Below the pieces are notes generated by a model. That model ran no database searches, had not been told where the DNA came from, and was given only the letters and a program-made list of their open reading frames with translations. Source: a virus. From it: a DNA stretch of 42,085 bases. The stretch is taken from IMG/VR virus record IMGVR_UViG_3300006149_000031, one strand, 5' to 3'. The stretch's first letter is position 1; every line of letters starts with the position of its first letter. A program made the translations under genes and the position numbers. Positions 1,080 through 24,106 of this stretch are shown here, piece after piece.

Positions 1080-1112
1080 CAAGTTGGCGAGAATCAATGT
1101 TTTTATCCCTGC
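1080..1112 (-). promoter_or_regulatory. Late-motif copy (gene sense CATTGATTCTCGCCAACTTG), 34 nt upstream of the tail-fibre ATG
   Basis: One of five copies. It is 32/33 identical to the copy at 28118..28150 and overlaps the last codons of the TerS-like gene. Confidence 0.6.
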
Positions 1113-1594
1113 TTCACGGGAGGCTCAAAAGGCAGGGAGGACAGCAGAGTTATAAAATTCTCTCCTGCATCCACTTCCATCTTCTGAGGAGTGTATGCGC
1201 CATCCATCTTGTTAAGCTCGGCAATAGCGGCGATTTTTGAGGGCATCTTAAATTTCGCTCCGGTTTCATCCATGGAAACCTCCTGACAGAGATCGGATGC
1301 GCTACCAACATTGCCGATGGGAGTTGTCACTACGCGGGACAACCATTCCATGCGCTGCTGCCTGGTCAGCACAGCAGACTTATCCAGTTGCTTATTCAAT
1401 TTGTCAATCATTCGCAAAACTTCGTCATCTTTGGACAAACGGGATGCCGCCTTGCTGGCTGCGACATTACTCATATCCTTGCGATTGTGGGCCTTACGAT
1501 AAGCGTCCGCCTTGGACAACTTTTCCGCAACCAGAAGCCTCGCAAACTCCTTCTTCTTCTCGGTCACTTTGGTCTTGTTATCCTTCCTTCTCAT
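1103..1594 (-). CDS. Terminase small subunit-like HTH protein
   Basis: 163 aa. The N-terminal segment KKKEFARLLVAEKLSKADAYRKAHNRKDMSNVAASKAASRLSKDDEVLRMI follows the pattern of P27-type small terminases (F..eY......A...AGY......a...asrLl....V). It has its own late motif upstream. Confidence 0.55.
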   Translation of the reverse strand: MRRKDNKTKVTEKKKEFARLLVAEKLSKADAYRKAHNRKDMSNVAASKAASRLSKDDEVLRMIDKLNKQLDKSAVLTRQQRMEWLSRVVTTPIGNVGSASDLCQEVSMDETGAKFKMPSKIAAIAELNKMDGAYTPQKMEVDAGENFITLLSSLPFEPPVKQG

Positions 1595-3488: not shown

Positions 3489-3489
3489 A

Positions 3490-4323
3490 TCAAAAAAGCG
3501 TCAGTTGGGGGTTGTAGTTAAGCCACAGGCATTCGATTTTCTTGCCTCCCTGCGTGTCGTAAGAGACCTTGCATTCCTTCCTCCAGCCGGAAAGATGCCT
3601 GGAATAAAGGTCGGAATCATAGCCAGACAGGACAACCTTGCCTTTCAGCGTCTTGAGAAAGACAAGAAGCCGCTCATGGTCTTGCTGGTCGTACTCGTGC
3701 GCGTACCTCGCGCGGTTGCCGCGGGTAGATTGCACATAGGGCGGATCCACGTAATGCAGCGTGTCCGGCGTATCGTACCGGGCCATGACCTGCAGGGCGT
3801 CCATGTTGTTGATCTCGATATTCCGGTTCCGTAGTTCGGCCGCACATTCTCGCACTACGGCCGGATATTCCCGCACTACGGCCGGATATTCCCGCCACGT
3901 TTGAGGATAAGGGGTTGCGTGGAGTAAGCCGTTGCGTTTGAACCCCGGCTTGTGGATGCCTCCGCCGTAGCTCATCATGGAGTTGACGGCAAAGCGGAGA
4001 GCATCTTCCACGGGGTCTTCAGCGATTTCAAATGACCGGGCATAGGCTTCCTGGGCGTAGGGCGTCAATTCCAATAGACTGGCCAGCCGTGCGGATTTTT
4101 CCGGATCCCTCAAAACTTCAAAGAAGTTCACCACCCGGTCATAAAGATCGTTGTAGACCTCCATCCATGCAGGTTGCTTGTTGAGCAGCACCGCACCGGA
4201 ACCGCCGTAGGGTTCAACATAGATTTTGTGAGGCGGGAAAAAGCTGATAATCCAGGGGGCGATTCTGTTCTTTCCTCCGAGGTATCGGGCCAGAGCCCGT
4301 TTACGTAGTGCGCTCGTGTTCAC
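3490..4323 (-). CDS. dam: DNA adenine methyltransferase (D12 class, Dam-like)
   Basis: Motifs YLGGKNRIAPWI, VEPYGGSGAVLL and HYVDPPY. Start chosen at GTG 4323, which has AAGGAGG 5 nt upstream and a GTGA overlap with the upstream stop. The ORF-track start at 4404 is probably an over-extension. Confidence 0.85.
   Translation of the reverse strand: MNTSALRKRALARYLGGKNRIAPWIISFFPPHKIYVEPYGGSGAVLLNKQPAWMEVYNDLYDRVVNFFEVLRDPEKSARLASLLELTPYAQEAYARSFEIAEDPVEDALRFAVNSMMSYGGGIHKPGFKRNGLLHATPYPQTWREYPAVVREYPAVVRECAAELRNRNIEINNMDALQVMARYDTPDTLHYVDPPYVQSTRGNRARYAHEYDQQDHERLLVFLKTLKGKVVLSGYDSDLYSRHLSGWRKECKVSYDTQGGKKIECLWLNYNPQLTLF
3851..3892. repeat. Perfect 2 x 21-bp in-frame tandem duplication inside dam
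   Basis: cgcactacggccggatattcc occurs twice, giving REYPAVV-REYPAVV in the protein. Confidence 0.9.
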
Positions 4324-4661
4324 TCCCCCTCCTTTCTCGGTTCCCAGCGGTCCATGATTTCTGCGATATTGGCATGAGAGCATTCGCAACATGGAACATC
4401 CCATTCAGAATAGTCTGAATATTTGCAGTTACCGCAGTACCTCTCTTTAACCTGCCACGCCCTGCACGCGGACCTCTTCTGCCAAGCGTTAAGCACAAGC
4501 TCATGTTGATGAGTCTCGTTTCTGGCTTGCCTTAAAAGTTTTTGGCGAGTTTTCCCGGGCAACGCTTTGACGGTCGATCTGATACCCTTGTGAGTTAAAA
4601 CAACCTGTTCCCATGCTCCGCCGTACTCAAAAAAAGCTTTCTGTTCAGGCGTCATTTTCAT
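4320..4661 (-). CDS. Hypothetical Cys-rich (possible zinc-binding) early protein
   Basis: 113 aa. C-terminal CGNCKYSDYSEWDVPCCEC cluster. Translationally coupled on both sides. Confidence 0.5.
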   Translation of the reverse strand: MKMTPEQKAFFEYGGAWEQVVLTHKGIRSTVKALPGKTRQKLLRQARNETHQHELVLNAWQKRSACRAWQVKERYCGNCKYSDYSEWDVPCCECSHANIAEIMDRWEPRKEGE

Positions 4662-9300: not shown

Positions 9301-9312
9301 TGTATTGGTATT

Positions 9313-9813: not shown

Positions 9814-9981
9814 TCAGTCGTCGTAGTGTCCGTCGGGGTTGTCGCACTGGGGGGCGTGGTCAAAATCCCACTCGTCGATGGCCTGCTCAATCTGCTCCAG
9901 GAGTCCAACCGCAACGCCGTAGGAGATCGCTTCACCGTCCACCCGGATGCACCGGTCTTCGTCGTCGTATTCGATAATCAT
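9814..9981 (-). CDS. Small acidic hypothetical protein (manual, below 60 aa)
   Basis: MIIEYDDEDRCIRVDGEAISYGVAVGLLEQIEQAIDEWDFDHAPQCDNPDGHYDD. ATGA overlap with the upstream small ORF. Confidence 0.35.
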   Translation of the reverse strand: MIIEYDDEDRCIRVDGEAISYGVAVGLLEQIEQAIDEWDFDHAPQCDNPDGHYDD

Positions 9982-10127
9982 GCCCGCTCCTTTCTCATCT
10001 GATCCAGGGTTCTGTTTACCTGGCGTATGATGTGTTTCTCTCCCAGGCTGATACCAAGCATCAACGCGGACAGGTAGCCTGCCATGTTAAGCAGCGTCAC
10101 AACAATAAATTCAGTCCAGTTCATCAT
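9978..10127 (-). CDS. Small single-TM protein (manual, below 60 aa)
   Basis: MMNWTEFIVVTLLNMAGYLSALMLGISLGEKHIIRQVNRTLDQMRKERA. Confidence 0.35.
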   Translation of the reverse strand: MMNWTEFIVVTLLNMAGYLSALMLGISLGEKHIIRQVNRTLDQMRKERA

Positions 10128-10221
10128 TGGTTATTTGTTAGTGATTGATATTGGTTGTTATTACTTAAATAAAAATGGAGAGCCTGCCAATGTAACGCCT
10201 TGGCTTTGAATGTGCTCGTAT

Positions 10222-10303
10222 TGCCTAAATTCATGCGCATGCCGGCTCATTATTCTTGAAGATGAAAGCTGTCAGGCTACTATTCCGTTATGCCTAAATT
10301 CAT
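10222..10303 (+). repeat. Two copies of the 13-mer TGCCTAAATTCAT (10222..10234 and 10291..10303)
   Basis: The second copy covers the ATG of the plus-strand ORF. The first lies just upstream of its -35 and begins a 12-codon mini-ORF with the same first residues (PKF). Confidence 0.7.
10256..10283 (+). promoter_or_regulatory. Sigma70-like promoter TTGAAG-N16-TACTAT, with the -10 ending 6 nt before ATG 10290
   Basis: Read directly from the sequence. The geometry predicts a leaderless or near-leaderless mRNA. Confidence 0.45.
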
Positions 10304-10484
10304 CACAATAGAAGATTCTTCTGGTCGTCCCCATATCGTGAATGCTGATTACATTGCGCTGATTAAGAAGCGCTCCGACGGGACTTATGATTACATCCTC
10401 TCCATCCCTAACGCGAATTCCAGATTCCGCGTTATTCATTCAAACTACCTCCTTTCCTTCTTTACATCTGGCAACAATCATTAG
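10290..10484 (+). CDS. Small plus-strand hypothetical protein in an AT-rich patch, convergent with the early operon
   Basis: 64 aa, MPKFITIEDSSGRPHIVNADYIALIKKRSDGTYDYILSIPNANSRFRV.., with protein-like composition. It has its own promoter and its 3' end overlaps the convergent gene 10440..10700 by 45 nt. Confidence 0.45.
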   Translation: MPKFITIEDSSGRPHIVNADYIALIKKRSDGTYDYILSIPNANSRFRVIHSNYLLSFFTSGNNH

Positions 10485-10700
10485 TTTCTCTTTCCCCCAT
10501 TCAGGGCAAGAGACAGCCAATACCAGGAAACCTTTCCCCAGAACAGGGGAAGGACAGGAACTTATTCTTTCAAACTCGCGTATTTCTCCATCTACTTCGA
10601 GGAAAATGGGGTCGAAATCGGAACAGATCTTGTCCCAGTCATCTGCTTCTTCCTTGGTCAACATCCGAGCGTTCCTCGGTAATTCAGTATTTGTATTCAT
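10440..10700 (-). CDS. Hypothetical early protein
   Basis: 86 aa. Coupled to the upstream small ORF through an ATGA overlap. Confidence 0.5.
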   Translation of the reverse strand: MNTNTELPRNARMLTKEEADDWDKICSDFDPIFLEVDGEIREFERISSCPSPVLGKGFLVLAVSCPEWGKEKLMIVARCKEGKEVV

Positions 10701-11418: not shown

Positions 11419-11484
11419 GATATATTTTCAGCATAATACTGAAATTGCTAGGTAACAAGGTGTTGACATATCAGCAAAATGCTG
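11396..11484. promoter_or_regulatory. Three operator-like 13-mers, CAGC-N5-CTG
   Basis: CAGCGTATAACTG at 11396..11408, CAGCATAATACTG at 11429..11441 and CAGCAAAATGCTG at 11472..11484 (the last a perfect palindrome). The outer two lie inside the spacers of the divergent promoters. Confidence 0.6.
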
Positions 11485-11490
11485 TAATAT
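11463..11490 (+). promoter_or_regulatory. Repressor promoter TTGACA-N16-TAATAT, with the -10 ending 6 nt before ATG 11497
   Basis: Near-consensus hexamers read directly. The geometry implies a leaderless mRNA, as for lambda cI transcribed from PRM. Confidence 0.55.
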
Positions 11491-11496
11491 CAATGC

Positions 11497-12258
11497 ATGA
11501 CGACAACAAAAGAAGACGTAAAAAAATGGCTCAAGGTTATTGGTAGAGACAGAGAATGGCTCGCTAACCAATGTGGAGTTTCCAAGCGTCAGGTAGATAA
11601 TTGGCTTTCGTCATCCATCAATATTCCCGCAAAGGCTATCCTTGTTATTCAGCGTCTTATGAACGGAGAAGCCGAATCCTCTCCCCGCATCGTCATCGAC
11701 TTCACAGATGAAGAATGGGACATTATCTGTGAGGCCGCTAAAGCCCACAAAGAAACCTTCCTGGAATTCGTCAATACCGCCATTCAAAATGCCGCCAAAG
11801 AAAAAGAGGCAGCCCGCAAGAAGTTTACCCCGGTAGAAACATTCACAGCCCCTCCCTTGGAGGCTCAGGGACGAATCATCGGCAACATTGCCGCCGGCAA
11901 CCTGGCGGATGGAGACACCATCCCGCAGGACATCTGGTTATACCGCGAACTGGAAAAAGGGGAATACCTGCTACGCGTCAACGGTCACTCTATGGAACCC
12001 TCCATCCCGGACGGCTCCGTGGTCATCATGAAAAAATACACCATCCCTCCCATCCCCAAGTTAGGAACCATTGTTCAATACCACGATGAACGAGGGGTGA
12101 CGCTCAAAAAACTGGTTCGCAGGAAAAACCCGGAAACCGGAAAAATGGAATACGTATTACATCCACTCAATCCCGACTTCGGAGACATCGAACCCATGGA
12201 CGGCGGTAAAATCTCCGGCATCTATGTGGAAACGCTGGAACGCTGGAAGAAAGCTTGA
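11497..12258 (+). CDS. CI-type repressor with a C-terminal LexA/S24 autopeptidase domain
   Basis: N-terminal HTH (EWLANQCGVSKRQVDNWLSS). C-terminal GHSMEPSIPDGSVVIM (catalytic Ser) and VTLKKLV (Lys). Confidence 0.85.
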   Translation: MTTTKEDVKKWLKVIGRDREWLANQCGVSKRQVDNWLSSSINIPAKAILVIQRLMNGEAESSPRIVIDFTDEEWDIICEAAKAHKETFLEFVNTAIQNAAKEKEAARKKFTPVETFTAPPLEAQGRIIGNIAAGNLADGDTIPQDIWLYRELEKGEYLLRVNGHSMEPSIPDGSVVIMKKYTIPPIPKLGTIVQYHDERGVTLKKLVRRKNPETGKMEYVLHPLNPDFGDIEPMDGGKISGIYVETLERWKKA

Positions 12259-12394: not shown

Positions 12395-12426
12395 AGCCCT
12401 TGGCCTCCGGGTCAGGGGCTTTTTTG
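12395..12426 (+). terminator. Second plus-strand rho-independent terminator
   Basis: AGCCCTTG-gcctccgggt-CAGGGGCT followed by TTTTTG. Confidence 0.5.
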
Positions 12427-12438
12427 TTAAATAAGTTT

Positions 12439-13248
12439 CTACCTAATGAGATCAAAATTATCTAGGTAATAGGTTGCGTCTTCTTGTTTATCTCGGTTAT
12501 AGATAAACAATCCTCTATTGTCTTGCTTGACCTTGATTGTCATTCCGGCGTCTGATGTGCTAATATATCCTCCGTGTTGCATTCTGTTAATATCCCCATT
12601 TTGCAAAATGAGAAAACGATTAGTCATATGCCCATCGCATGAATAGCGGAACACAATCACATAAAATATATTAGCGGTAGAGCTGTTGATAAAATTATTC
12701 GGTTTAATGAAAACAGAAAGCTTGTTTTCTTTGAAAAAAGAAGTTTTAACCTGAATAAAGAAAAATTTGTCTCCTTTTGACGCTGTAATATCAACTCCTT
12801 CATCAGCAGACATAATGCTGGCATTATAGCCACGGAATAATAATTCACTCACTACAGCAAATTCACCACCTTTACCGCAAAAGATCTTGTCGCAGGAAGT
12901 ATTGGAAAAGACAAGAGGGAGTTGTACTTGCTTATCTCCTCCGGGGTTTGGTTTCTTTTTACGGTCAGGTTCTGTTCTGATGACTTGAGTACCTTTTGGC
13001 TCCGGCTTGATCTTATAAAGCCCCTTTCTGGATCTCTTCGTCTTTGGATTGATAACCTTTGCATAAACCGGTGTCTTGCTTTTGACATTGGCTGCCAAAA
13101 AAGAATTAACCTTCTTCTTCATGTCCTCAACGGATGCCCCTTGAAATTCAGCGATATGCTGAACAATATGCTCCGCTATATCGTTTACGTGGGCTTCTTT
13201 CTTACCTAATGCCTTGAAAGAAATTGAAACAGCTTCTTTAATGTCCAT
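12439..13248 (-). CDS. HARE-HTH + PD-(D/E)XK (Hjc/Mrr-like) nuclease; AT-rich moron
   Basis: N-terminus MDIKEAVSISFKALGKKEAHVNDIAEHIVQ...VNSFLAANVKSKTPVYAKVINPKTKRSRKGLYKIK fits the HARE-HTH pattern. C-terminus GKGGEFAVVSELLFRGYNASIMSADEGVDITASKGDKFFFIQVKTS gives an E ... D ... Q-x-K nuclease core. Start at ATG 13248; the ORF-track TTG start at 13284 coincides with the -35 hexamer. GC is far below the flanks (spot counts of roughly 27-42 percent per 60 nt versus about 55 percent). Confidence 0.6.
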   Translation of the reverse strand: MDIKEAVSISFKALGKKEAHVNDIAEHIVQHIAEFQGASVEDMKKKVNSFLAANVKSKTPVYAKVINPKTKRSRKGLYKIKPEPKGTQVIRTEPDRKKKPNPGGDKQVQLPLVFSNTSCDKIFCGKGGEFAVVSELLFRGYNASIMSADEGVDITASKGDKFFFIQVKTSFFKENKLSVFIKPNNFINSSTANIFYVIVFRYSCDGHMTNRFLILQNGDINRMQHGGYISTSDAGMTIKVKQDNRGLFIYNRDKQEDATYYLDNFDLIR

Positions 13249-13255
13249 ATTCTCC

Positions 13256-13284
13256 CTTATATGTATCGGTTCTTTCCAAGTCAA
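13256..13284 (-). promoter_or_regulatory. Sigma70-like promoter TTGACT-N17-TATAAG, with the -10 ending 7 nt before ATG 13248
   Basis: Read directly on the minus strand. Suggests autonomous, lysogen-compatible expression of the nuclease gene. Confidence 0.5.
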
Positions 13285-13341
13285 TAAATTCCTTTCAGAA
13301 AGTTTCGTGGTGCTTTTTAAGAATTTAGCTCTACTATTTCC

Positions 13342-14223
13342 CTACTTCGGAATCTTGAGTTGTATCTGCTTCTTGAAAAAGCTCTTAGCAAAAACTTCGG
13401 CTCCATTACTATTCCAGTCTTCTGCGTTGATCGCGTTCATATTCTTTTCTACCTCCACAACGCATGCATTCCTCTCCTGAAAATCCTTCCAAATCTGATC
13501 TGCCGTAACAACATCTGTTCCCCACAAATTGTTGGCGTTCTTGTAAATCTGGCGGCCTACATCTCTATCTCCGTCACCGATGGTCTCCATCAGGCGATTC
13601 CCAAGCATATAAGCCCGGTCATGTTCGCTAGCCAGATCAAGGAGGGAAACAGCATCTTCGCCCCAACGTACGCGGAATCTCTCTTTCGCCCCTTCATCTC
13701 CGGTAGCAAACAGCACAAGATCCATCAAGACCATCTCCTTGGTATTCGATCCTTTCCTTGCTCTGTAACATTCCATCTTCTCTTCCTGCTTTGCTCTCGC
13801 CTGCTCCTGTTGCATTCGCTCATGGGTGGCCACCTTCTCCAGCCTTTCATTCTCTCTATATTTGACAACAGCAAAAGCGGCGGAAGCAATTACCAGAAGC
13901 ACAAACAGGACTTTAACCGGACCCTTCACCTTCTTCCAGATAATGGACCATGGCGCCATAATGGACAAAAAAAGAACAATGGTTCCGGCATTCACCCACA
14001 TCCAGACCTCTTTCTCCAAATGCACCCGGAAAATGGGATTGTAAAGCAGGGCAATAGCGGCGGCTGACACGCTTCCAAAACAAACTCCCTTCTTCTGTTC
14101 CTGTGCAAATACAAAGACAGCATAAGCACAGACAGCTAAACGCAGGAACATATAATACCCGTAAGGCATCGGCAACAGCGCCACCCCCAGAAGAACGCAA
14201 ACAGCAATCAGCAAGCCTTTCAT
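13342..14223 (-). CDS. Membrane protein: DUF6804-like 4-TM N-domain + coiled coil + copy of the giant protein's N-terminal domain
   Basis: Start at MKGLLIAVCVLLGVALLPMPYGYYMFLRLAVCAYAV..LYNPIFRVHL.. (ATG 14223; the ORF-track start at 14415 runs into the giant gene). The C-terminal ..LDLASEHDRAYMLGNRLMETIGDGDRDVGRQIYKNANNLWGTDVVTADQIWKDFQ.. is identical to aa 145-199 of the giant protein. Confidence 0.65.
   Translation of the reverse strand: MKGLLIAVCVLLGVALLPMPYGYYMFLRLAVCAYAVFVFAQEQKKGVCFGSVSAAAIALLYNPIFRVHLEKEVWMWVNAGTIVLFLSIMAPWSIIWKKVKGPVKVLFVLLVIASAAFAVVKYRENERLEKVATHERMQQEQARAKQEEKMECYRARKGSNTKEMVLMDLVLFATGDEGAKERFRVRWGEDAVSLLDLASEHDRAYMLGNRLMETIGDGDRDVGRQIYKNANNLWGTDVVTADQIWKDFQERNACVVEVEKNMNAINAEDWNSNGAEVFAKSFFKKQIQLKIPK
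13478..13642. repeat. 165-bp direct repeat, copy A (163/165 identical to 23511..23675)
   Basis: Manual alignment finds two mismatches (13498 a vs g; 13618 c vs t). The flanks are homologous but strongly diverged. Confidence 0.9.
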
Positions 14224-14278: not shown

Positions 14279-17200
14279 TCACTCCGCCAGCTTAAACCCA
14301 GGCTTGGACAAATTCGCCACCCCAGCCACGGACAAGAGCCAGGACGCCACGGAATCAGCCGCCTTGCTGCGGCTCCCGGCGCCCGCTCCGGCCACGTAAG
14401 CGGCCGCCTTGGCATCCAGCAGAATCAATTCCGCCCAATCGGCAAACGTCATCTCCTTCTCCCCGGTGACGGCTTTCCACGTATTTTTGGCCGCCCGGTA
14501 AATCGCGGAATAATCAATCACTCCGGACGCGGTGCCTGCGTAAATACGCTGTCCAGTCGCCTGCTTGTAGCCAAACTCCACCGCCGCACCCAGCATCGGC
14601 ACCCCGCCAATCATGGCAACAGGAGCCCCCAGCATGGCGCCGAACCATCCGCCGTTCTTCTCCCACTCGTCCTCGTCATCCAGCAGGGCGTGCCACAGGG
14701 CAATCACCGTCTGTTCGGCAACGGACATCATTCCATATAAAGCAAGAGCCTGCCCCCAATTCCCGGAGCTCACATGAGAAACGATCATCCCCACCTTATT
14801 CAACACCTCGGAACTCATAAAACAGGCCATCTTCGCAAACAGGCCCGTGGAAGCCCCCAGCATGCTCTTCTGGCTCTGCGTCAGCGGCTGGGCCACCAGC
14901 TCCAGCGCCCGGGTCACGCTCTGCATGCACAGGGCGTGCATCTCATCATCCGTCATCGGGACGCCGGTCCTTTTTCCTGCCTCTTCCAGCTCGGCCCACT
15001 TCGCGTTATACAGGGCGGCCATGGACACGGCATTGCTCCACACGTCCATCTTCTCAATAGCCCTCATGCCGGCCATGGAAAACCTGATCGCTCCGGTGTA
15101 ATTCTGATCGGAAGCATACCCCATCAGCTGGCTCACCAGCTCCGCCTGAGCGTCATTGGTCCTCGCCCGGAAAGCCTCCGTCTTCATCACCTCAAACACC
15201 CCCATGCGTCCGGTCATGGACATCGTCTGCCCCAGGTGCAGCAGGAAACTCCCCATGCCAACCTCCCCGGCAAACATCCCGTGCATCAGGCCGCTGGTCT
15301 GCTTGAGCATCGTCAGCACGTTCCAGGCCAGCAGGGCCACCGCCTTGGCGCTCTGGAAGCGGCTTGTCGCCTGGGCTCCGGCCAGCAGGGCGCCCCCCTC
15401 CATCACTCCGGCCCCGTCGATCACATCCAGCCAGTGCCGCAGCGAATCAATCCCGTGGCGCCCCATGTGCTCCTTCAGGGACGCTGCCGCCTCCTTGTCC
15501 GCCAGAATGCCGCGCCAGCGGGCAGTAATATCCGCCGTGCAAATATAATTCTCCACCTCGGCGCTCGCCGCCTGGAACACGGCCTCGCAATCCATATTCC
15601 AGGCCAGGTGCAAATTGTGCTTCCGCCTGGGAATCAGCATCCCGTACTTCGCCCCGCCGGCCACGGCATTCGTCTGTTCCCCGAAAGACGCCTTCGTATC
15701 AAGCTTGTGGTCCGCCCGGAACACGGCCCGGAAATAATTCTCCACCGCGGGGAAGGGAACCCCCTCACGCTCCTCATACACACGGGCCAGCAGCTTTCCC
15801 TGCCGGTTCATCAGCTCCCGCAGGCCGTAGCCGAACGCCAGCCCTTCGGCGCCCACAAACTCGCGCAGGCGGGCAACCTCCGCTTCTCCAATGCCTTCAT
15901 TCCGCATCGTCTCCACGTACTCGGCCTGCTCGTAAAGCAAAATGGCATACATCGCCTGGGCGCGGGAAACCTTCAACGTCTCGCCCTTCCTGCCCGGGCG
16001 CACCACTTCCTCCTTCGCCGTAATATTCTTCCTCCTTCTGGCCCGTCCGTCTCCGGCCTTCACCAATTCATCCAGCTCGGCAAGCTGCCGGCGCATCTCC
16101 GGAATAAGCGCTTCCGGCACGGACGCCTTATCGTCGGAAAGCCCCCGGTCATTGTACTCCTTCCTGATTGCCTTGCGTCGTTCCTCCCTCTCCTCAAAAG
16201 ACAACCCCACCCACTCGCGGGCCTCGGCGATCCTCACGGTGCGCTCCACCTTCACCAGCGGATTCAGCACTACGCCGGAATCCCCTGTCTTCTTGAAATC
16301 GGAAAGAACCCTTGCCACATCTTTGGTGCGCTGAACGCCAAAACACCGCTTAACCAGGGCCGTCACCTCCCGGTCCCGGGCGTGCTTCATATTCCTCAAC
16401 GCCACATTCGCCTCGGCAATCGCAGTAACCTCGGCATGCGCCAGACCGCGCAGGGCGGGAATCTTCTTCCATCCATTCAACAGCTGGGAATAAGACTGCA
16501 AACCGTACTTCAGGTACTTGGCCGCCTTCGTTCTCGTAGACGCCTTCGCATCCTCTTCCGCGTCACGTCCTCCCTGGGGAGTGGCCTGCCCAAGCCCTTC
16601 CACAATCTTCTCGGCCTTGAACTTCGTCCGGCGCCTCTCCTCGTCCAACCGGGTGGACCAGGCCGTCCGTCCCGTCGTGATAAACAGGGCAAGGGCGCGC
16701 GCGCAGGCGCGCGTCTGCTCCAGTCCCATCCCGGCCAGATATCCGAACGTGTGCCAATCCTTCAATTCCAGCTCGGCCGCACCCCGTTCCTCTTCGGTGG
16801 ACTGGTTGCTGGAAAGCACGCCCTCCAGCTCCAGCATTCGCTTCTCCTTCGCCTCCTGGTCCGTATTCATCATGGCGACTATCCCGTGCAAATGCCTGTA
16901 ATCCTCCGCGCTCAACTTGCCCTTGTTAAACTTCCCGCTGGCCTTCTTCGTCGGCTGCACGGCCTTGATGCGGGCAACCATCTCCGCCCGCATCTGGTCG
17001 ACGGCATATCGGTCTGCCTGTTCCAGCGTGCGGGCCAGCAGCTTGTCAATCACGGCATCCATGCGCTCGCTGGTATCGTCCATCAGCGTCTCCTTCTTCA
17101 GCTCATCGGAAAGCCATGCCTGACCGTCCTCCAGACGGGTGGCAAGATTCTCGGCAGCTCTCATGTAAGGGTAAAGGCCAAACCTGTACCCCTCCGGCAG

Positions 17201-20200
17201 CGTCTTGTAAATGGAAGCCACCACGGCCATGACCCTTCCGAACGCCTCCGCGCCGTCTCCCTGCTTCACATCGTTGGCCGCGCAAACCCGGCGCCATGTC
17301 TCCAACGCTTTTGCCGTCTGGCTGCGCAGCACCTCCAAACGGTTCTTCTGCGCCTCCCGCTCCAGCGTCACCCAGACACTTTCTCTCGTGGCAAGAGAGA
17401 AACTCGCCGTCGGATCCTCATAATCCGCCCACGCTCCCCCGGTGGACTCGTCCGCAAACGCCGTAATCTTAATATCGTTGCCGTCAAAAATCACGTAATT
17501 ATACGTCTGCTTCTCCTCCGCCTTCCAGCGGGAAAAACCGTCTGCGTACCTGATGCCCCTCACTCCATGCCTTAACAGAAACTCGCTCGCCTCTCTGGGG
17601 CTTCCCAAGGCATCCTCCAACGAGCGGTAAATCTTGCCCCCCATCCAATACCCATTTTCCGGATCCTTGTCGTTGAACAAAGAATACGCTTCTTCCTTGC
17701 CCTCATCCAGAAGCCAATCTCCTATTCTGGATGTTGTAGATGAGCCGTACCCTTTATCCCAAAACAGCAGCTCCCCTCCTTCCATGAAGTCCAAATAATC
17801 CTCCACATTCAGCTCCACGCGGTAATTGGAAGGCATGCCCGTCCTGACCTCTATCTCGTCCAGATGATCAAGCAGAGAAAGTAGAAAGCCTTCCAGCTGG
17901 ACCATTTTCTCCCGCTCCTGGGGATACTCCTCCGCGTGTTTCCTGTTGATTTCAATCTCCTCCATCACCTCTCTGGCGATGTCTGAAACAGTCATGCTTC
18001 CTTTGGAGGCATCAACCAAATCGCCAAGAACAGACCAGGCGATATCTGACGCGTCCTCCTTGGCCTCCGGCAGGGCATCCTTCGGCAAAAAACTATTTAC
18101 CAGGGATCGTTGCATCACTTCTATAACGCCAGTCTCCACCTCCCGGAACTTCCATGTCGTCTTATCCTGCGCGAACTGGTTCATATAACTCCGGTTCACC
18201 TCCGGATTTTCCGCAAAATAAAGTCCCCAGCCATACGCCTGCGCTCCTTCCCCCTTGCCCATGAACGCCGTATCAAACTTGCGAAAACTGTGAGGGGAAG
18301 CATGCAGGGCAGTAATGGAGAACGTCACCCCCGGTTCCGTAATCACAGCGTTGCCCGCCTCAAAATGGCCGTCCCGGAACAAGCCCTGTTCCTGTGCCGA
18401 AACAATGGAAAACGTAATGTCCGGATTCTTCGGATCAAACGTCCCCCGGTTGTTCGTGGAGGACTTGATCTGATTCGGCTCAAAGGCAATGTACTCCGTC
18501 CATTTACCCAGTACAGCAATGAGTCCATCATGTCCTCTTTCTTGAGCACTATCGGCTATCTGGGCCGCTCCTGTCGCATACGGCCGGAATATTCCAAACC
18601 TGTCATCTTCATGAAAATTCCCATCCCAAATATTTAAATAATCGCCTATCTCTTCAGCAGACTTGTAATCATTAAAAATAAACGGATTCCTGATATTCAG
18701 AAACAGAGCCAGCTTCTTGTTCCCGTACGGAGTATTCTCCATATTGGTAAAATAAAATCCTCTACCCCATATACCATAATCAGTAGCAGATCCAATCTTG
18801 GCCTTGTCAAACACCGTGAAATCACCGTATGTCCCATGATACACCACCCTCGGCTCCCCGTTCTCGTCCACCACCTTGGAAGCATTCTGCGGATCCTTCT
18901 CCCAATCGCCAAACCAATTCTTAAACGCCGCCGTGCGCACGGCAAGCCACTGGTCTTCCGTCAGATTCGTTTCCTTCCCGTTCGGGGCCTTCATGAACGT
19001 GCCCGCAGCCACAGCTTCCTTCTTGATTGCCTCTTTTTCCAGAGATAGGGAAAACGTCGCCGGAACAATAGCCCCGTCGTCAAACCGGCATTCCACTTCA
19101 TTCACGTTGACAACATGCGCCCCTTGTGGTAAGGAAAAACCATCTCCCCCGCCAGCGGATTGGGACGGCAGAGCGGCCTTGCTTGCCGATCCTGGACCTA
19201 GGCGCGCGGTGCCGCTATTCGCGTTTGCAGGTTGTCGCTCTGCAAGGGGGAGCTTCTTCCCCAGCGGCTTCTTGCCCTGCCGCACTGGATAAGCCGAGAC
19301 AATGGAATAAAACCCGTCCTTCCGGTCCAATTGCAGCAGCATCCATGAAGAAGGCTGCCTTCCCTTAACCAGCAGCTCACGCCCGGGCGCCACCTCGTAA
19401 AGCTCGCTCACATTCGCCAGAATGGAACTGATATAGCGTTCCGGGGAACGGTCCTTCCAGAAGGAAAACCCGCGGGAAGCCAGGATATGGGTCAGTCCAT
19501 AGCCGCGATGCTCCCCGACATCGGAACCCACCAGCAGCCGCACCGGCATGGCTGGCTGCCTCTTGCGGCGCGGAATCACAAACCAGTCAGGACTTCCGTC
19601 TTCCCGGGTGACGAACGTCTCCGGAGCCAGGACAGTTCCGGAACTATCCATGGCAACCACGGAAAACGTCGCCCCGGAAACGGGCACACGCTCGAACGGA
19701 TTCACTTCACTCGTGCCGTCCCAGGCAAGGGCGCGGTCATGAAGGTGCAGCGCCGGGTCATGGGACTGCCATGCCCCCTTGGCTCTTTCCAAATCATGAA
19801 TGGCCGCATTCAAATCTGCGTCCGTCTCCAGGCGGATGCCCATCCTGCCCGCCAAATCCTTCCGCCGGCTGATGCCTCTGGACTTCTTCAGAAGGGACAG
19901 GCGTTCGGCAATCAGGGAAATCCCCCGGGCCGCAAAGCGGGCCACCTTCTCGCAATCCTCCTGCCAGGACGTATCGTTGCCGAACAAATCAAACGCCTCT
20001 CCCTCCCGGGACTTCTCCGCAGCCACCCGGTCCGCCTCCTTCACATAGGCCGCCACGTAATCCCACGGCTTCCCCTTCTCGCGCAGCTGCAGGGCAAGCA
20101 TCTGTCCCGCCTCCGTTGAAGACAGGCGGCATACCTTCCACGCCTCGTTATCCGTAATCACCCCGTTCTTCAGGCGGGTAAACACCTCATCCCCGGCCAG

Positions 20201-23200
20201 GGTGGCAATATCCCAGCCCATCACATTGGCGGAACCGGGGCGCAAATACCCCTGCGCCTCCATCTCGTCCCGGCCCATATTGGAATTCCGGACAAAAAAA
20301 GCCACCTCCAGCGCGGACGCCTGACCGTCCAGCATATTCTGCCCGACGTCGTGCATCTTCGCCCAAGTGGCGTCATGCGCATCATCTTCTTCATACACGT
20401 AAGCCGGAATAAACTCCACCCCGTCGCGCACGGCCAAATCAAACCGGTGGCGTCCGGTAATCACATGCAGGGCTCCATCCCTGCGCCGCCACACGGAAAT
20501 GGGCTGGGCGTCTTCCCGGAACCATCCCTGAAGCTCGCGCCCCTTCACGGCTCCGCGTTCATTATGATCTCCCTGCTTGAACTGCTCCACATCCGGCGCC
20601 AGGGCCAGGGAATCCACCCGCACCTGGGCAAACACGCAATCCGGCGCCACCCGCACAAACGCGTGATCGCGGAACTCCGCGCCGGCCTCTTCATCGTGTT
20701 CGGCCTCTTCCCCCACCCCCTCCAGGGAGCCGCCGGCATCCTCCACCAGCGGAGCGGGGGATGCCGAATTCCCGGCAATGCCGGTCACGGGATCAGTCTC
20801 ATCCTCCTCTTCCGCGGTCTCTTCCACATCCTCCGCGGCATCCATCCGCGCCATGGACTCTTCCAGTGCCTCCAGCTCGCCCAGCGTCATCGTGGCATCC
20901 CCCGGAGCCCTGCGGGAAGCAAGGTCCGCGTGCACCATCTCCACATCCAGTTTCTGCGCGGCATCCATCCGCGCCTGGCGGAAAACGCTCTCCGTACTCA
21001 CGCCCACGGCCTGCAGGGCGTCTGCCAGGCCTCCGTGCTCTTCCATAAACTTCTTCCCCTCGTCCGTCGCGGCAAACTCGTTCCATTGCTCGCCCATGCG
21101 TATGATGCGGGCGGAATCCTCCAGATTCTTCAGGGCGAACTCCGCGGTGTCCTTCACCCACTGTGGCACGGGCAGGCTCTCAATATCCGCCAGGGAGGAA
21201 GACAGGGACAGGTTGGAAAAACTTTCCACCACGTCCCTGGCATCATGCGCCGGGCCCTCATACGTCCCCAGACTCACGCCGTACCTTCCCAACACGGCGT
21301 CCGCCGCCTGCAAATGCTCCCACAAATCCTGCCAATCCTTCCCGGTCAGGTTCATGTAATGAACCAGGGCGGACTCCTGCACATCCTCCATCACGTTGGC
21401 CGTCGTGGCATGGCCTCCTGCGTAAAGCAGCAGGGAACTCCCAGGATCGGTCGCCATCGTAAACCGGTGGGCGAAGCTGGCCGCCGCCGTGCCGTTCCTG
21501 ATCTCCTCGGATCTCCCCCTCGTAATCTCTCCGGAACGCACTGCATGATCAAGACGCCTCTCAAAAGCCGCCGCCAAATCGGCAATGGAACCAAGCTGAA
21601 CCTTCCCCATCACTTCGGCATCCGTCCTGCTTCTGGCTTCCTGGACGGACACGCCCTCTTCCCGGACAATCGCGTCAATCCTCGCCTGGGCTCGCGCGGC
21701 CACATCCATCAACCCCGGGACGGTCATCCCTCCGGTTTCGGCGGCCGCCTTCCGGTACTCCGCAGGCGCTTCCTCGGACAACATATCCAGCGTCTCAATA
21801 AAATCCATCTTCCCGGCTTCCGAAATCGCGGCATTCCCCAGCACGGCATCCTGCATCACGCGGACGCCATTCAAATAAGCCCCCTGCAGCACTACCTGAA
21901 CCAGGGCGTCCGTCTGCTCCTCGTTCATCTCCACGCTCCTGTCTTCCTCCATCTTCACGCCGTTCACTACAGCGCCCTCCCGCAGGCTCACCTCGTACCT
22001 GTCCGTTCCTTCCAGCTTGCGGATACGGCCAATGTTGGCCTTCTCCAGCACCTTGTCCAGAGCGCCGGACATCTGGTACAGCCGGGCCTCCTGCCGGTCC
22101 GCCAGCTCGGCGCCGGCCTTCCGCGCCCGTTCGGCGGCTCCTTCTGGATCCTTCAATACATCAGTCTCGAAATACTTCTGGGCCAGCGCAGCCTTGTGCT
22201 CCGCCGTGGAAAAAGACGCCATCTCTTCGGCATGCTTCTTCGTATATCCGGCCAGCTGGGCCCGCTGCGCATCCGTCACGAACGCCGCCACTTCCTGCTT
22301 CATCCTCGGAGCGTGGCCGGCAGCCATGGCCGCCACAAACAACGCGCATCCGCCGGACTGCTCCACATCCCCCATCGCCTGAAGCACGGGGCCCACCACC
22401 TCGAAATCCTTCGGCTTCACCTCCATTCCCGTCATCCCGGACAACTTCCGGGCCGTCCACTCGAACAACTCCCCGGCCAGAGGTTCCGCCGCCATCTCTT
22501 CCACGTAGGCAAACGCCGGGGTGGAAAGCATCTTGCCGGTTCTCGTCCCGGCAAAAAACGTGCGCCCCGGCACCTTCGCGGCCAGTCTCGCCAGGGCGCC
22601 GGTTCCCGTCCTGGTCATCAGCTTGTTGATGGCCCCCATGCGCCCGAACACGGAAAACACCCCAAACCCCTTTTCCTCCACCGTATTCCGCAGCCCGTTG
22701 ATCGTCACGTCCACCAGGGAATCCCCGTTGCGGGAGGCGGCATTCCCGGCGTGCCCCATATCCCCGGCCAGCGCCAGGGCCCAGCCGCCGGGAGCCATGT
22801 AGGAAAGGCTCTGCCCGGTGATATTCCCGGCTCCGTTAATCGCCTTGACGTACCAGGACGCATCAGGGCTCGTGCCCCGCATCCGCTGTCCGAACTCGTG
22901 CATCACATCCTGCATCGTATTCAGCGCTTCGCGTCTTTGCTCGTAGCGGTCGAAGAGCTGCCTTTGTCCGTCAAACGTATCCTTCACCCCCTGCAGGGGA
23001 GCAATATTATTGGAATACCACTCTTCCATTCCGCTCATGCCGGGAATGCCCCTCACCGCCTGAACCGCCTTCACGCCCAGGCTCTCCGCGCCGCGCGCCG
23101 TGTCGGCAAAACTTCTATACAAATTGCGCCAGAAAGCAGCGGAATCCGTCTGGCTCTCCTGAACCTTCCGGTCAATCGCGGTCATCAGCAACATCAACGC

Positions 23201-24106
23201 CTGCTGGTCCAGCACCTCATTCCCGTTGACATTCACTGTCAGCAGATCGGCCATGTCCAGCGCGTCGGAGCGCCAGACATCCTCAAACCCGCGCCTCTCG
23301 GCAAAAGCATACGCCCGCCGCGCCCTCATGATGGAATCGGCAGCCTTCTGCGGACTCTCGGCATACTTCAGCAAATCGGCAGGACACGCGTCCCAGCTGC
23401 CTTCCTTCCCGGCTACGCAATCCACTATCCGGCGGGAAATCTCCTCCTGTTCAGTCTGAACCCTCTTCAGATTTTCATTATAGGCGTCCAGCGTCTTCTG
23501 ATGCCTCCCTTGAAAATCCTTCCAAATCTGGTCTGCCGTAACAACATCTGTTCCCCACAAATTGTTGGCGTTCTTGTAAATCTGGCGGCCTACATCTCTA
23601 TCTCCGTCACCGATGGTCTCCATCAGGCGATTCCCAAGCATATAAGCTCGGTCATGTTCGCTAGCCAGATCAAGGCGGTTCAGAGCATCTTGGCCCCAGA
23701 GTTCCGCAGCTTTCTTTCTGCCCTCTCCATCCATGGCCCCGGCCCGCAGCACATCCATCAGCCGGGCCTGCTTATCCTTTCTGCGCCTCTCTTCTCGCTC
23801 TGCTGCGCCGTACATCATCATAGCCCCCTGGTCATGCAGGGATTCAGGATCCGTCAGCTGCGGACGGAACTCCGTTTCGGAAGGATCTTCCGGAGCAGGA
23901 AAAGGGGAAGGAGTGGTTTCCATCACGTCGCTTCCATTCAAAAGATTAATGTCGGCTGCTGCTTGCTCCTGTCCTGTTCCCGGTTCCATCTCCGGCAGGT
24001 GAAATCCGGCGGCAGCCTCGCCCTCCGGCAGCGGCAGGGAGGAAAAAGAAAGATCCAGAGGCATATCCGCAGCGTCGGCCCCGTCAAAGGAAAAATTGTC
24101 GTTCAT
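14279..24106 (-). CDS. Giant (3275 aa) polyvalent virion/ejection protein
   Basis: Single uninterrupted ORF at the end of the internal-protein gene block. It contains a ParB-like module, two ART-like modules and a possible RNase-like module. The C-terminal third is hydrophobic and Gly/Ala-rich (..GGWFGAMLGAPVAMIGGVPMLGAAVEFG..), as expected for an ejection/channel protein. Confidence 0.8.
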   Translation of the reverse strand: MNDNFSFDGADAADMPLDLSFSSLPLPEGEAAAGFHLPEMEPGTGQEQAAADINLLNGSDVMETTPSPFPAPEDPSETEFRPQLTDPESLHDQGAMMMYGAAEREERRRKDKQARLMDVLRAGAMDGEGRKKAAELWGQDALNRLDLASEHDRAYMLGNRLMETIGDGDRDVGRQIYKNANNLWGTDVVTADQIWKDFQGRHQKTLDAYNENLKRVQTEQEEISRRIVDCVAGKEGSWDACPADLLKYAESPQKAADSIMRARRAYAFAERRGFEDVWRSDALDMADLLTVNVNGNEVLDQQALMLLMTAIDRKVQESQTDSAAFWRNLYRSFADTARGAESLGVKAVQAVRGIPGMSGMEEWYSNNIAPLQGVKDTFDGQRQLFDRYEQRREALNTMQDVMHEFGQRMRGTSPDASWYVKAINGAGNITGQSLSYMAPGGWALALAGDMGHAGNAASRNGDSLVDVTINGLRNTVEEKGFGVFSVFGRMGAINKLMTRTGTGALARLAAKVPGRTFFAGTRTGKMLSTPAFAYVEEMAAEPLAGELFEWTARKLSGMTGMEVKPKDFEVVGPVLQAMGDVEQSGGCALFVAAMAAGHAPRMKQEVAAFVTDAQRAQLAGYTKKHAEEMASFSTAEHKAALAQKYFETDVLKDPEGAAERARKAGAELADRQEARLYQMSGALDKVLEKANIGRIRKLEGTDRYEVSLREGAVVNGVKMEEDRSVEMNEEQTDALVQVVLQGAYLNGVRVMQDAVLGNAAISEAGKMDFIETLDMLSEEAPAEYRKAAAETGGMTVPGLMDVAARAQARIDAIVREEGVSVQEARSRTDAEVMGKVQLGSIADLAAAFERRLDHAVRSGEITRGRSEEIRNGTAAASFAHRFTMATDPGSSLLLYAGGHATTANVMEDVQESALVHYMNLTGKDWQDLWEHLQAADAVLGRYGVSLGTYEGPAHDARDVVESFSNLSLSSSLADIESLPVPQWVKDTAEFALKNLEDSARIIRMGEQWNEFAATDEGKKFMEEHGGLADALQAVGVSTESVFRQARMDAAQKLDVEMVHADLASRRAPGDATMTLGELEALEESMARMDAAEDVEETAEEEDETDPVTGIAGNSASPAPLVEDAGGSLEGVGEEAEHDEEAGAEFRDHAFVRVAPDCVFAQVRVDSLALAPDVEQFKQGDHNERGAVKGRELQGWFREDAQPISVWRRRDGALHVITGRHRFDLAVRDGVEFIPAYVYEEDDAHDATWAKMHDVGQNMLDGQASALEVAFFVRNSNMGRDEMEAQGYLRPGSANVMGWDIATLAGDEVFTRLKNGVITDNEAWKVCRLSSTEAGQMLALQLREKGKPWDYVAAYVKEADRVAAEKSREGEAFDLFGNDTSWQEDCEKVARFAARGISLIAERLSLLKKSRGISRRKDLAGRMGIRLETDADLNAAIHDLERAKGAWQSHDPALHLHDRALAWDGTSEVNPFERVPVSGATFSVVAMDSSGTVLAPETFVTREDGSPDWFVIPRRKRQPAMPVRLLVGSDVGEHRGYGLTHILASRGFSFWKDRSPERYISSILANVSELYEVAPGRELLVKGRQPSSWMLLQLDRKDGFYSIVSAYPVRQGKKPLGKKLPLAERQPANANSGTARLGPGSASKAALPSQSAGGGDGFSLPQGAHVVNVNEVECRFDDGAIVPATFSLSLEKEAIKKEAVAAGTFMKAPNGKETNLTEDQWLAVRTAAFKNWFGDWEKDPQNASKVVDENGEPRVVYHGTYGDFTVFDKAKIGSATDYGIWGRGFYFTNMENTPYGNKKLALFLNIRNPFIFNDYKSAEEIGDYLNIWDGNFHEDDRFGIFRPYATGAAQIADSAQERGHDGLIAVLGKWTEYIAFEPNQIKSSTNNRGTFDPKNPDITFSIVSAQEQGLFRDGHFEAGNAVITEPGVTFSITALHASPHSFRKFDTAFMGKGEGAQAYGWGLYFAENPEVNRSYMNQFAQDKTTWKFREVETGVIEVMQRSLVNSFLPKDALPEAKEDASDIAWSVLGDLVDASKGSMTVSDIAREVMEEIEINRKHAEEYPQEREKMVQLEGFLLSLLDHLDEIEVRTGMPSNYRVELNVEDYLDFMEGGELLFWDKGYGSSTTSRIGDWLLDEGKEEAYSLFNDKDPENGYWMGGKIYRSLEDALGSPREASEFLLRHGVRGIRYADGFSRWKAEEKQTYNYVIFDGNDIKITAFADESTGGAWADYEDPTASFSLATRESVWVTLEREAQKNRLEVLRSQTAKALETWRRVCAANDVKQGDGAEAFGRVMAVVASIYKTLPEGYRFGLYPYMRAAENLATRLEDGQAWLSDELKKETLMDDTSERMDAVIDKLLARTLEQADRYAVDQMRAEMVARIKAVQPTKKASGKFNKGKLSAEDYRHLHGIVAMMNTDQEAKEKRMLELEGVLSSNQSTEEERGAAELELKDWHTFGYLAGMGLEQTRACARALALFITTGRTAWSTRLDEERRRTKFKAEKIVEGLGQATPQGGRDAEEDAKASTRTKAAKYLKYGLQSYSQLLNGWKKIPALRGLAHAEVTAIAEANVALRNMKHARDREVTALVKRCFGVQRTKDVARVLSDFKKTGDSGVVLNPLVKVERTVRIAEAREWVGLSFEEREERRKAIRKEYNDRGLSDDKASVPEALIPEMRRQLAELDELVKAGDGRARRRKNITAKEEVVRPGRKGETLKVSRAQAMYAILLYEQAEYVETMRNEGIGEAEVARLREFVGAEGLAFGYGLRELMNRQGKLLARVYEEREGVPFPAVENYFRAVFRADHKLDTKASFGEQTNAVAGGAKYGMLIPRRKHNLHLAWNMDCEAVFQAASAEVENYICTADITARWRGILADKEAAASLKEHMGRHGIDSLRHWLDVIDGAGVMEGGALLAGAQATSRFQSAKAVALLAWNVLTMLKQTSGLMHGMFAGEVGMGSFLLHLGQTMSMTGRMGVFEVMKTEAFRARTNDAQAELVSQLMGYASDQNYTGAIRFSMAGMRAIEKMDVWSNAVSMAALYNAKWAELEEAGKRTGVPMTDDEMHALCMQSVTRALELVAQPLTQSQKSMLGASTGLFAKMACFMSSEVLNKVGMIVSHVSSGNWGQALALYGMMSVAEQTVIALWHALLDDEDEWEKNGGWFGAMLGAPVAMIGGVPMLGAAVEFGYKQATGQRIYAGTASGVIDYSAIYRAAKNTWKAVTGEKEMTFADWAELILLDAKAAAYVAGAGAGSRSKAADSVASWLLSVAGVANLSKPGFKLAE
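17459..18331 (-). other. Second, diverged module with parallel motif layout (aa ~1926-2216)
   Basis: TALHASPHSFRKFDTAFMGKGEGAQAYGWGLYFAEN ... GVRGIRYADGFSR..TYNYVIFDGNDIKITAF has the same order of H / aromatic-YF / terminal strand motifs as the preceding module, with a large insert. Confidence 0.35.
18407..18964 (-). other. ADP-ribosyltransferase-like module (H-Y-E type, polyvalent-protein family), aa ~1715-1900
   Basis: AAFKNWFGDWEKD..KVVDENGEPRVVYHGTYGDFTVFD (H), GIWGRGFYFTN (Y), KWTEYIAFEPNQIKSSTNNRGTFDPKNPDITFSI (E). Confidence 0.65.
19277..19669 (-). other. Unassigned module (aa ~1480-1610) with a GEHRGYGLTHILASRG motif; possible PBECR-type RNase
   Basis: The G.G..HI...R motif is reminiscent of phage Barnase-EndoU-ColE5/D-RelE-like domains found in polyvalent proteins. 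Assignment from memory only. Confidence 0.25.
20267..20659 (-). other. ParB/Srx-fold nuclease-like domain of the giant protein (aa ~1150-1280)
   Basis: ..ISVWRRRDGALHVITGRHRFDLAVRDGVEFIPAYVY.. resembles the ParB motif (DG..y.vidGhHRl.Aa...G...iP). Confidence 0.6.
23511..23675. repeat. 165-bp direct repeat, copy B (inside the giant gene, aa 145-199)
   Basis: See copy A. Confidence 0.9.

Follow-up and report, generated by a model that had tools for sequence, protein, structure and literature searches.

In the 42,085-nt viral record IMGVR_UViG_3300006149_000031 (hereafter the window, meaning this whole stretch of DNA), a gene on the minus strand is predicted to encode a protein that joins an N-terminal HARE-HTH winged helix to a C-terminal PD-(D/E)XK nuclease domain. 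We favor the reading, at a probability of roughly 0.6, that this gene is a dispensable, horizontally acquired moron for a solitary restriction-type endonuclease, providing prophage-borne immunity against other invading DNA. The observations behind this reading are the domain architecture of the protein, the conservation of its catalytic residues, the gain and loss of the gene as a discrete cassette, a promoter-like element conserved along with it, and the genomic contexts of its relatives, which include repressor genes and restriction-modification (R-M) genes. From those contexts we infer a role in defense; transcription in the lysogen, nuclease activity, dependence on DNA modification, and an anti-phage effect of the protein are likewise predictions.

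The program-listed open reading frame (ORF) that covers the gene (12439..13284, minus strand) opens at a TTG codon at 13284, which is also the first three bases of a TTGACT hexamer described below. This start was not borne out. Close homologs (72-96% identity) begin at MDIKEAV, so that, judged by this alignment, the true start is almost certainly the ATG at 13248, giving 269 aa. The guanine-cytosine (GC) content of the gene is 38.3%, versus 55.6% in the window, and its GC content at third codon positions (GC3) is 0.39, versus 0.72 in the neighboring giant gene. Among all segments of 813 nt, the gene has the lowest GC content, ~3 standard deviations under the mean, in agreement with the sharp drop in composition from which the sequence-only reading had proposed horizontal acquisition.

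That proposal is matched by gain or loss of exactly this cassette among related phages. A search with a 19-mer from the 3′ end of the upstream DUF6804 gene led to five viral contigs. In L154, L155, and L157, a 906-nt cassette comprising the promoter-like element and the gene is absent, and 19 nt (AGTTCAGTTTTTTGAAAAG) stand there instead. The empty site consists of the DUF6804 stop codon and GGAAATA, followed by AGTTCAGTTTTTTGAAAAG and then by AACAAAAAAGCCCC..., which is the terminator hairpin. The left flank in L154 is 99.4% identical to the window over 1066 nt. Because these near-identical relatives lack exactly 12429..13334, the gene is, on comparison of these genomes, best described as a true moron that is dispensable for phage growth. 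We see no sign that the protein is needed for the phage's own replication, the circumstance that the sequence-only reading had set against its own proposal, as near-identical phages do without the gene.

The insert lies between the stop codon of the last late gene and the late terminator. This terminator, a GC-rich hairpin with compensatory changes in L016 and L073, gave the first impression of being part of the cassette. The empty site rules this out: since the hairpin is present in the empty-site relatives, we assign it to the phage backbone, where, as a terminator, it separates the late unit from the repressor gene. The downstream hairpin, which might pass for the moron's own terminator, is a backbone element.

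The window is related to Akkermansia phages, its repressor region being 90% identical in DNA to that of phage Chambord. Other Akkermansia phage contigs carry cassettes with 72-96% protein identity, preceded by one or another of three different upstream genes and always located between a giant virion-protein gene and the immunity region. Beside Chambord's repressor, a C5-type methylase and other genes take the place of the cassette, and this methylase has no homolog in the window. The insertion site is a cargo hot spot. In the contig L005, where the cassette context is 88% identical, a gene for a 572-aa AAA_15/AAA_21 (OLD/Abi-type) ATPase (8909-10627, minus strand) lies between the nuclease and S24 repressor genes and is a second candidate defense cargo at the same hot spot.

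The cassette carries a promoter-like element of its own. Read along the minus strand, TTGACT (13284-13279) is followed by a 17-nt spacer, TATAAG (13261-13256), the 7 nt GGAGAAT, and the ATG. Across seven loci with three unrelated upstream contexts, TTGACT never varies, the -10 conforms to TATA(A/C)(G/A), and the spacing does not change; similarity among these seven cassette loci starts ~55 nt before the ATG. The sequence-only reading had placed a consensus promoter directly on the ATG. The element is indeed present and conserved with the gene, but the word consensus overstates the match, which holds at 10 of 12 positions of a consensus that may not be that of Verrucomicrobia. Its -10 hexamer lacks the canonical final T, and for this reason a consensus scan did not list it. 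Because the -10 ends 6-7 nt before the ATG, the mRNA made from this predicted promoter is probably leaderless. A Shine-Dalgarno-like GGGAGAA before the ATG was set aside as a ribosome signal, being unconserved among the cassettes and outside the predicted transcript. At the repressor gene of the window (11463-11499, plus strand), we observed the same geometry as in the nuclease cassette: TTGACA-16-TAATAT ends 6 nt before the ATG at 11497. The repressor mRNA is probably leaderless as well, in an arrangement that recalls lambda cI transcribed from PRM.

We next turn to the protein. Its AlphaFold model, built with the family alignment, has a mean predicted local distance difference test (pLDDT) score of 90.2 and consists of a winged helix, a low-confidence Lys/Pro linker of ~35 residues, and an alpha-beta-beta-beta-alpha-beta core with an extra C-terminal beta subdomain. 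The core elements are H122-139, E143-146, E155-159, E162-172, H186-190, and E194-205 (model numbering, which includes one extra N-terminal residue; subtract 1 for numbering from Met1). Foldseek matched the nuclease half at probability 1.0 to Hjc/Hje resolvases, the SPARDA DREN nuclease, I-Ssp6803I, SwaI, and EcoRV, with TMt 0.61-0.67 against 2ost. A family alignment of 68 sequences, spanning 27-96% identity, places GGEF (residues 127-130), EGVDI (150-154), and IQVKT (165-169) on invariant columns, bearing out the Hjc/Mrr-like core that the sequence-only reading had drawn from these motifs. The residues invariant in all 68 sequences (Met1 numbering) are G125, G128, E129, E135, D149, G151, D153, Q166, V167, K168, and R201. 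Neither the catalytic fold nor the triad is missing; by alignment, the site appears as an intact E...D...QxK in which Q stands in place of an acidic residue, the "PD-QxK" variant known as a catalytic motif from Mrr (PMC11037411). As a predicted member of the PD-(D/E)XK superfamily, the protein would be a metal-dependent phosphodiesterase.

Profile searches place this domain nearest to PDDEXK_5 (PF11645). The window protein itself scores 13.4 bits (E 0.079) under a gathering cut-off of 26.1, with further sub-threshold direct Pfam matches to Mrr_cat (E 0.17) and DUF6661 (E 0.05). Among the 68 homologs, PDDEXK_5 is matched by 44 at E<0.01 (best 1e-9), DUF4365 by 15, and Mrr_cat_2 by 5. As the founder of PDDEXK_5 is the homing endonuclease I-Ssp6803I (PMC3424549), the gene could be a selfish, free-standing PD-(D/E)XK homing endonuclease of this kind that uses the HARE-HTH domain for recognition of a long site and spreads by cutting cassette-free phage genomes. 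The sharp presence/absence polymorphism at one intergenic site is consistent with this explanation, as is an AT-rich gene with its own promoter-like element. We nevertheless consider a homing role improbable, because the left flank of the same cassette takes three unrelated forms, and because members of the family occupy many unrelated contexts rather than one target site. We also found no duplicated or split target, and the recurrent coupling with repressor and hsdR genes described below is unexpected for homing.

The top structural matches are the archaeal Hjc/Hje resolvases, and one source labels a homolog "Holliday junction resolvase". Both would suit a phage recombination or packaging nuclease, that is, an Hjc-like Holliday-junction resolvase tethered to DNA by its winged helix. 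This role seems to us very improbable, given that the phage already has RusA, along with RecT and YqaJ, and that the gene is dispensable, being absent from near-identical phages. Furthermore, the gene is foreign in composition, is not part of the recombination module, and is also found in non-phage chromosomes beside R-M genes.

The N-terminal domain is more diverged. In a Pfam scan, the window protein itself gave no match to PF05066 (HARE-HTH) at E<=1; 22 of the 68 full-length homologs match this family, the best at 9e-18. When the N-terminal domain of the window's own subfamily (profile A7) was aligned by hhalign with a profile of nine N-terminal domains that are all PF05066-positive (A8, best 3.7e-18), the two matched over 87 columns at a probability of 97.5% (E 5e-12). 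The N-terminal part of the model (AF2) has the topology H-b-H-H-b-b at pLDDT 84-95. Its top Foldseek matches are forkhead winged helices (TM 0.64-0.70), and no solved HARE-HTH structure, such as that of the RNA polymerase delta subunit, is among the top 50. Based on these profiles, we assign the N-terminus as a diverged HARE-HTH winged helix, the identity that the sequence-only reading had read from its pattern. The linker that follows varies in length across the family, as seen from indel-rich alignment columns. HARE-HTH domains are common to RNA polymerase delta subunits and human ASXL proteins, and their ligand, N6-methyladenine (6mA) versus cytosine modifications, is disputed. Binding data were found for human ASXL1 alone: in pull-downs, its HARE-HTH domain bound 6mA DNA selectively (PMC6591016).

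This two-domain family is small yet widespread. We identified 535 homologs at E<=1e-3 in a set of 5.8 billion proteins and, among 1.84 billion representatives at 50% identity, 283 at E<=1e-30 and 1463 at E<=1e-3. Nearly all members are 240-290 aa long and align end to end; the N-terminally extended members (320-460 aa) show no extra Pfam domain. Direct family scans (Pfam, NCBIfam, PADLOC, and PHROGs) yielded only sub-threshold or uninformative matches, the PHROGs match being phrog_5018, of unknown function. PADLOC applied to the 68 homologs likewise gave weak matches only, to PDC-S01 in 6 (best 1e-4) and to REase_II in 1. Sequence searches of the PDB with the single sequence, the full-length profile, and the N-terminal profile returned nothing but weak forkhead matches (E about 1), a tblastn search of 50,697 GenBank phage records returned no match, and the BFVD viral structures contained matches to the nuclease domain alone, with no two-domain relative. 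The family is absent from current defense-system catalogs. On this point the sequence-only reading, which could name no corresponding defense system, agrees with the PADLOC result. The architecture itself is already on record, however: comparative-genomics papers describe fusions of HARE-HTH to restriction endonucleases, and the Aravind group has repeatedly predicted that these tell modified from unmodified DNA in the settings of R-M, Dnd, and BREX (PMC4738411, PMC10853773, PMC12839542).

To place the gene in context, we examined 149 loci from viral contigs and genomes, in which the gene falls into 63 clusters at 70% identity. Across clusters, a single neighbor family recurs, that of a cI-type S24 repressor of ~220 aa, which is present at 28 loci from 15 of the 63 clusters. 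In 19 loci its gene directly precedes the nuclease gene (position -1), and in 7 it is found at -2; its orientation is always that of the nuclease gene, and the gap is mostly <100 nt. Pfam searches of 57 upstream neighbors found Peptidase_S24 in 9 and HTH_3 in 10. Typical immunity or early-region genes flank the nuclease gene in these repressor-linked prophages, among them RecT and an HTH_17 gene in divergent orientation. The nuclease gene thus belongs to the repressor operon in many temperate phages, as rexAB does in lambda. The downstream neighbors, analyzed in 61 clusters, include neither a recurrent partner nor a methyltransferase family. Compared with its flanks, the gene is enriched in AT both in the window and in 57 of 61 clusters (median -8 points), a hallmark of mobile defense genes.

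Two further arrangements were observed among these loci. In a Porphyromonadaceae genome, MatE and DUF362 genes enclose an isolated group of three genes, namely those for an S24 repressor, the nuclease, and a 219-aa protein (L011 6330-8487, L013 5320-7477). The same trio lies inside a full prophage in L012, and the isolated trio looks like the retained remnant of a decayed prophage. At L008/L009 (8072-14490), just past the nuclease gene and at the edge of a prophage, there is a HigB/HigA pair and an MksE/DUF3584 (Mks/Wadjet-like) cluster, another sign of a defense-rich neighborhood.

One cluster of 37 loci, mostly from candidate-phyla (Patescibacteria) bacteria, has the gene 1-10 nt downstream of a variable upstream gene. 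In seven candidate-phyla loci (L093, L094, L097, L132, L138, L151, and L152; about 2700-6435), the upstream gene encodes ~1000 aa, with a gap or overlap of <=25 nt; the two of these that were sampled (L093 and L138) are both type I HsdR. The other sampled candidate-phyla upstream neighbors were one HsdS, one reverse transcriptase, and one KilA-N protein. In E. coli K-12, mrr adjoins hsdR, mirroring the hsdR-nuclease order of the candidate phyla. In five candidate-phyla loci, a D12 methylase lies 4-8 nt upstream of the nuclease gene, and in L139 one is found farther upstream. An adjacent D12 methylase occurs in only these 5 of the 149 loci, all in one candidate-phyla cluster.

These pairings bear on what we regard as the main rival to a modification-dependent enzyme: a methylation-blocked nuclease, like that of a classical R-M system, to which the phage's own D12 methylase would contribute in trans. 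Phage DNA would be marked during lytic growth and unmethylated host or competitor DNA degraded; alternatively, the pair would act as an addiction module. Besides the five candidate-phyla loci and a locus with a D12 methylase 3.7 kb from the nuclease gene (L007), this explanation draws on the phage's own D12 methylase, on the placement of HARE-HTH nucleases in N6A-modifying R-M systems (PMC4738411), and on the position of the gene at the end of the late unit. Several observations make it unlikely in our view. The cassette moves without a methylase, none being present in the cassette or adjoining it, and no locus outside one cluster has an adjacent methylase. The sole methylase found in the window is ~8 kb away, in the early operon and hence another transcription unit, and belongs to a D12 subgroup other than that of the candidate-phyla-linked enzymes. 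Finally, in 15 clusters the gene is co-transcribed with a lysogenic repressor; an early methylase would then be silent, leaving the host chromosome without protection. Whatever its role, the early-region methylase constrains the possible targets of the nuclease, and it is a possible partner in trans.

For the solitary defense nuclease that we favor, the following mode of action can be proposed. The TTGACT-N17-TATAAG promoter would give rise to a leaderless mRNA independently of the late operon, so that the protein would be made in the lysogen. The HARE-HTH winged helix would bind duplex DNA and discriminate its modification state, and the flexible Lys/Pro linker would deliver the PD-(D/E)XK domain (E135, D153, Q166-x-K168), which would cut the bound DNA. 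The nuclease domain is probably dimeric, like Hjc and Mrr. Its most likely specificity would be modification-dependent (Type IV, Mrr-like), with the methylated or otherwise modified DNA of competing phages cut and the unmodified host chromosome spared. We favor this specificity because the cassette travels without a methylase, and because the gene is co-expressed with repressors under conditions in which early methylases are silent, when cutting of unmodified DNA would kill the lysogen. A broader and more tentative proposition, to which we give a little under even odds, is that the family constitutes an unnamed single-gene anti-phage system. In temperate phages of several bacterial phyla, the gene would either be wired into the cI-repressor operon or sit next to that operon as a leaderless moron, and the lysogen would constantly make a HARE-HTH-guided nuclease that destroys the modified DNA of rivals.

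Several points weigh against a lysogen-expressed defense nuclease that targets modified DNA. First, our literature search found no experimental work on any bacterial HARE-HTH-nuclease member, and PADLOC-DB v2, which includes Shedu and the PD-T4/T7/lambda nucleases, gave 0 matches at E<=1 for the window protein. Second, the gene in the window faces the repressor gene convergently instead of sharing a transcript with it, and sits at the tail of the late unit; as a consequence, expression in the lysogen would depend wholly on the predicted promoter, with its -10 lacking the final T. Third, the phage encodes an N6-adenine methylase, which is awkward for a nuclease targeting 6mA and equally fits a methylation-blocked one. 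Fourth, the five methylase pairings in the candidate phyla, arranged as in a classical R-M operon, point to cleavage of unmodified DNA, at least in that branch. Finally, outside the candidate-phyla branch, the immediate neighbors are only modestly enriched for defense genes.

The features of the gene and of the phage around it are listed in Table 1.

Table 1. Coordinates in the window of the nuclease cassette, the parts of the encoded protein, and the phage genes discussed in the text
Feature	Coordinates	Strand	Basis
Coding sequence, 269-aa HARE-HTH / PD-(D/E)XK nuclease (predicted)	12439..13248	-	ATG 13248; stop 12439-12441; ORF and homolog starts
HARE-HTH winged-helix domain, residues 1-82 (predicted)	13003..13248	-	AlphaFold model, hhalign, Foldseek
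Lys/Pro-rich flexible linker, residues about 83-120	12889..13002	-	pLDDT 56-72, no predicted secondary structure
PD-(D/E)XK nuclease domain, residues about 121-269 (predicted)	12442..12888	-	Invariant columns, Foldseek, Pfam matches of homologs
Promoter-like element TTGACT-N17-TATAAG	13256..13284	-	Sequence and conservation in seven loci
Mobile cassette, 906 nt (promoter-like element and gene)	12429..13334	-	Replaced by 19 nt (AGTTCAGTTTTTTGAAAAG) in empty-site relatives; blastn and junction alignment
GC-rich hairpin, A6-hairpin on gene strand, hairpin-T6 on plus strand	12395..12420	.	Terminator scan
cI-type repressor (HTH and Peptidase_S24)	11497..12258	+	Pfam Peptidase_S24 3e-9; phrog_4 transcriptional repressor
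DUF6804 membrane protein, 293 aa, last backbone gene upstream of insert	13342..14223	-	Pfam DUF6804 2e-19; L002 homolog called at 293 aa
Single 3275-aa ORF, end of structural genes	14279..24106	-	
D12-class N6-adenine DNA methyltransferase, early region	3490..4404	-	Pfam MethyltransfD12 5.6e-18; DPPY motif
RusA	5350-5769	-	Early region
YqaJ exonuclease	6299-6937	-	Early region
RecT	7926-8915	-	Early region
Small terminase	1103..1594	-	

Almost all genes of the window lie on the minus strand. Genes for early functions, recombination, and replication, including those for RecT, YqaJ, RusA, and the D12 N6-adenine methylase, run from ~11366 down to ~1900, and the structural genes from 42010 down to 24136, followed by the 3275-aa ORF, the DUF6804 gene, and the nuclease gene, which is the final gene of this late/structural transcription unit. 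The sole clear plus-strand gene is the HTH-Peptidase_S24 repressor gene, which converges on the nuclease gene; the location between the end of the late operon and cI given by the sequence-only reading agrees with this layout. With the small terminase at one end, the structural genes (24136-42085) at the other, and all of these on the minus strand, the organization suggests that the window, at 42 kb, represents a nearly complete phage genome in circularly permuted form. No integrase was found among the window ORFs scanned, though no search aimed at integrases was made.

The 3275-aa protein looks like a phage "polyvalent" virion or injected protein, and its relative in L005 bears a PBECR3 toxin-like nuclease domain. 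The gene for this protein also shares a direct repeat of 260 nt, at 85% identity, with the DUF6804 gene (13468-13727 and 23501-23760), such that a segment from the N-terminal part of the large protein (LDLASEHDRAYMLGNRLMETIGDGDRDVGRQIYKNANNLWGTDVVTADQIWKDFQ) is duplicated in the C-terminal part of the DUF6804 protein. The repeat could represent an interaction module common to both proteins or a scar left by recombination.

If the defense reading is correct, the cassette, at ~0.9 kb, would be a compact immunity gene driven by its own promoter and traded between gut phages of Akkermansia, a bacterium of interest as a probiotic, and it would shape which phages can superinfect the lysogen. The protein would also be the first experimentally tractable prokaryotic HARE-HTH "reader" and could settle which modification is sensed by this domain, which human ASXL1 also contains; a 269-aa bacterial enzyme whose cutting reports HARE-HTH reading would make the ligand question directly testable. 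Linkage to the repressor operon would offer a simple genomic rule for finding more lysogen-expressed defense cargo. Together, the empty site, the promoter cassette, and the repressor linkage make this gene a good and cheap candidate for experimental validation.

Among known systems, the closest in architecture are the HARE-HTH fusions with a restriction-endonuclease fold. Aravind and Iyer reportedly described these in 2012 as the architecture that named the domain, and they are said to have been predicted computationally since then. They share with the window protein an N-terminal HARE-HTH domain, a C-terminal PD-(D/E)XK domain, associations with N6A methylases, type I R-M, and defense loci, and a predicted capacity to discriminate modification. 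Unlike those computational descriptions, which center on R-M, Dnd, and BREX neighborhoods, we describe a solitary phage moron for which the lysogeny repressor operon is the main conserved context across the family, one that we did not find described in the comparative-genomics papers cited above. What is already known is the architecture itself, a predicted class of modification-discriminating restriction enzymes; new here are the anatomy of the moron with its empty site, the predicted leaderless promoter cassette, and the finding that the family is strongly linked to repressor operons of the cI type.

EcoKMrr is likewise a single polypeptide of ~270-300 aa with an N-terminal winged helix, a C-terminal PD-QxK nuclease, and no cognate methylase, and its gene in E. 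coli lies beside the type I hsdR gene, as in the candidate-phyla relatives described here. The Mrr catalytic loop TGDGGIDG aligns with SADEGVDI in the window protein. Membership in the Mrr family was nonetheless rejected: the hhalign comparison with EcoKMrr was not significant (probability 0.2%, with only the catalytic loop aligned), the Mrr_cat match is sub-threshold, and the winged helix is HARE-HTH rather than Mrr_N. The resemblance to Mrr is functional and architectural. With I-Ssp6803I/PDDEXK_5 and archaeal Hjc, the protein shares the nuclease core fold (Foldseek TMt 0.58-0.63) and an E...D...(E/Q)xK-type motif; neither the homing endonuclease nor the junction resolvase has a HARE-HTH domain. 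The Type IV enzyme HhiV4I, which cuts 6mA DNA (PMC11037411), resembles the window protein in that a prophage encodes it and in that it fuses a winged helix to a nuclease, but it is an unrelated PUA-wH-HNH enzyme. In genomic position, the closest parallel is with lambda rexAB and sieB-type, lysogen-expressed exclusion genes: these too are accessory prophage genes, positioned beside the repressor gene or downstream of it, and their presumed role is the exclusion of other phages. RexAB differs in being an unrelated protein that is not a nuclease.

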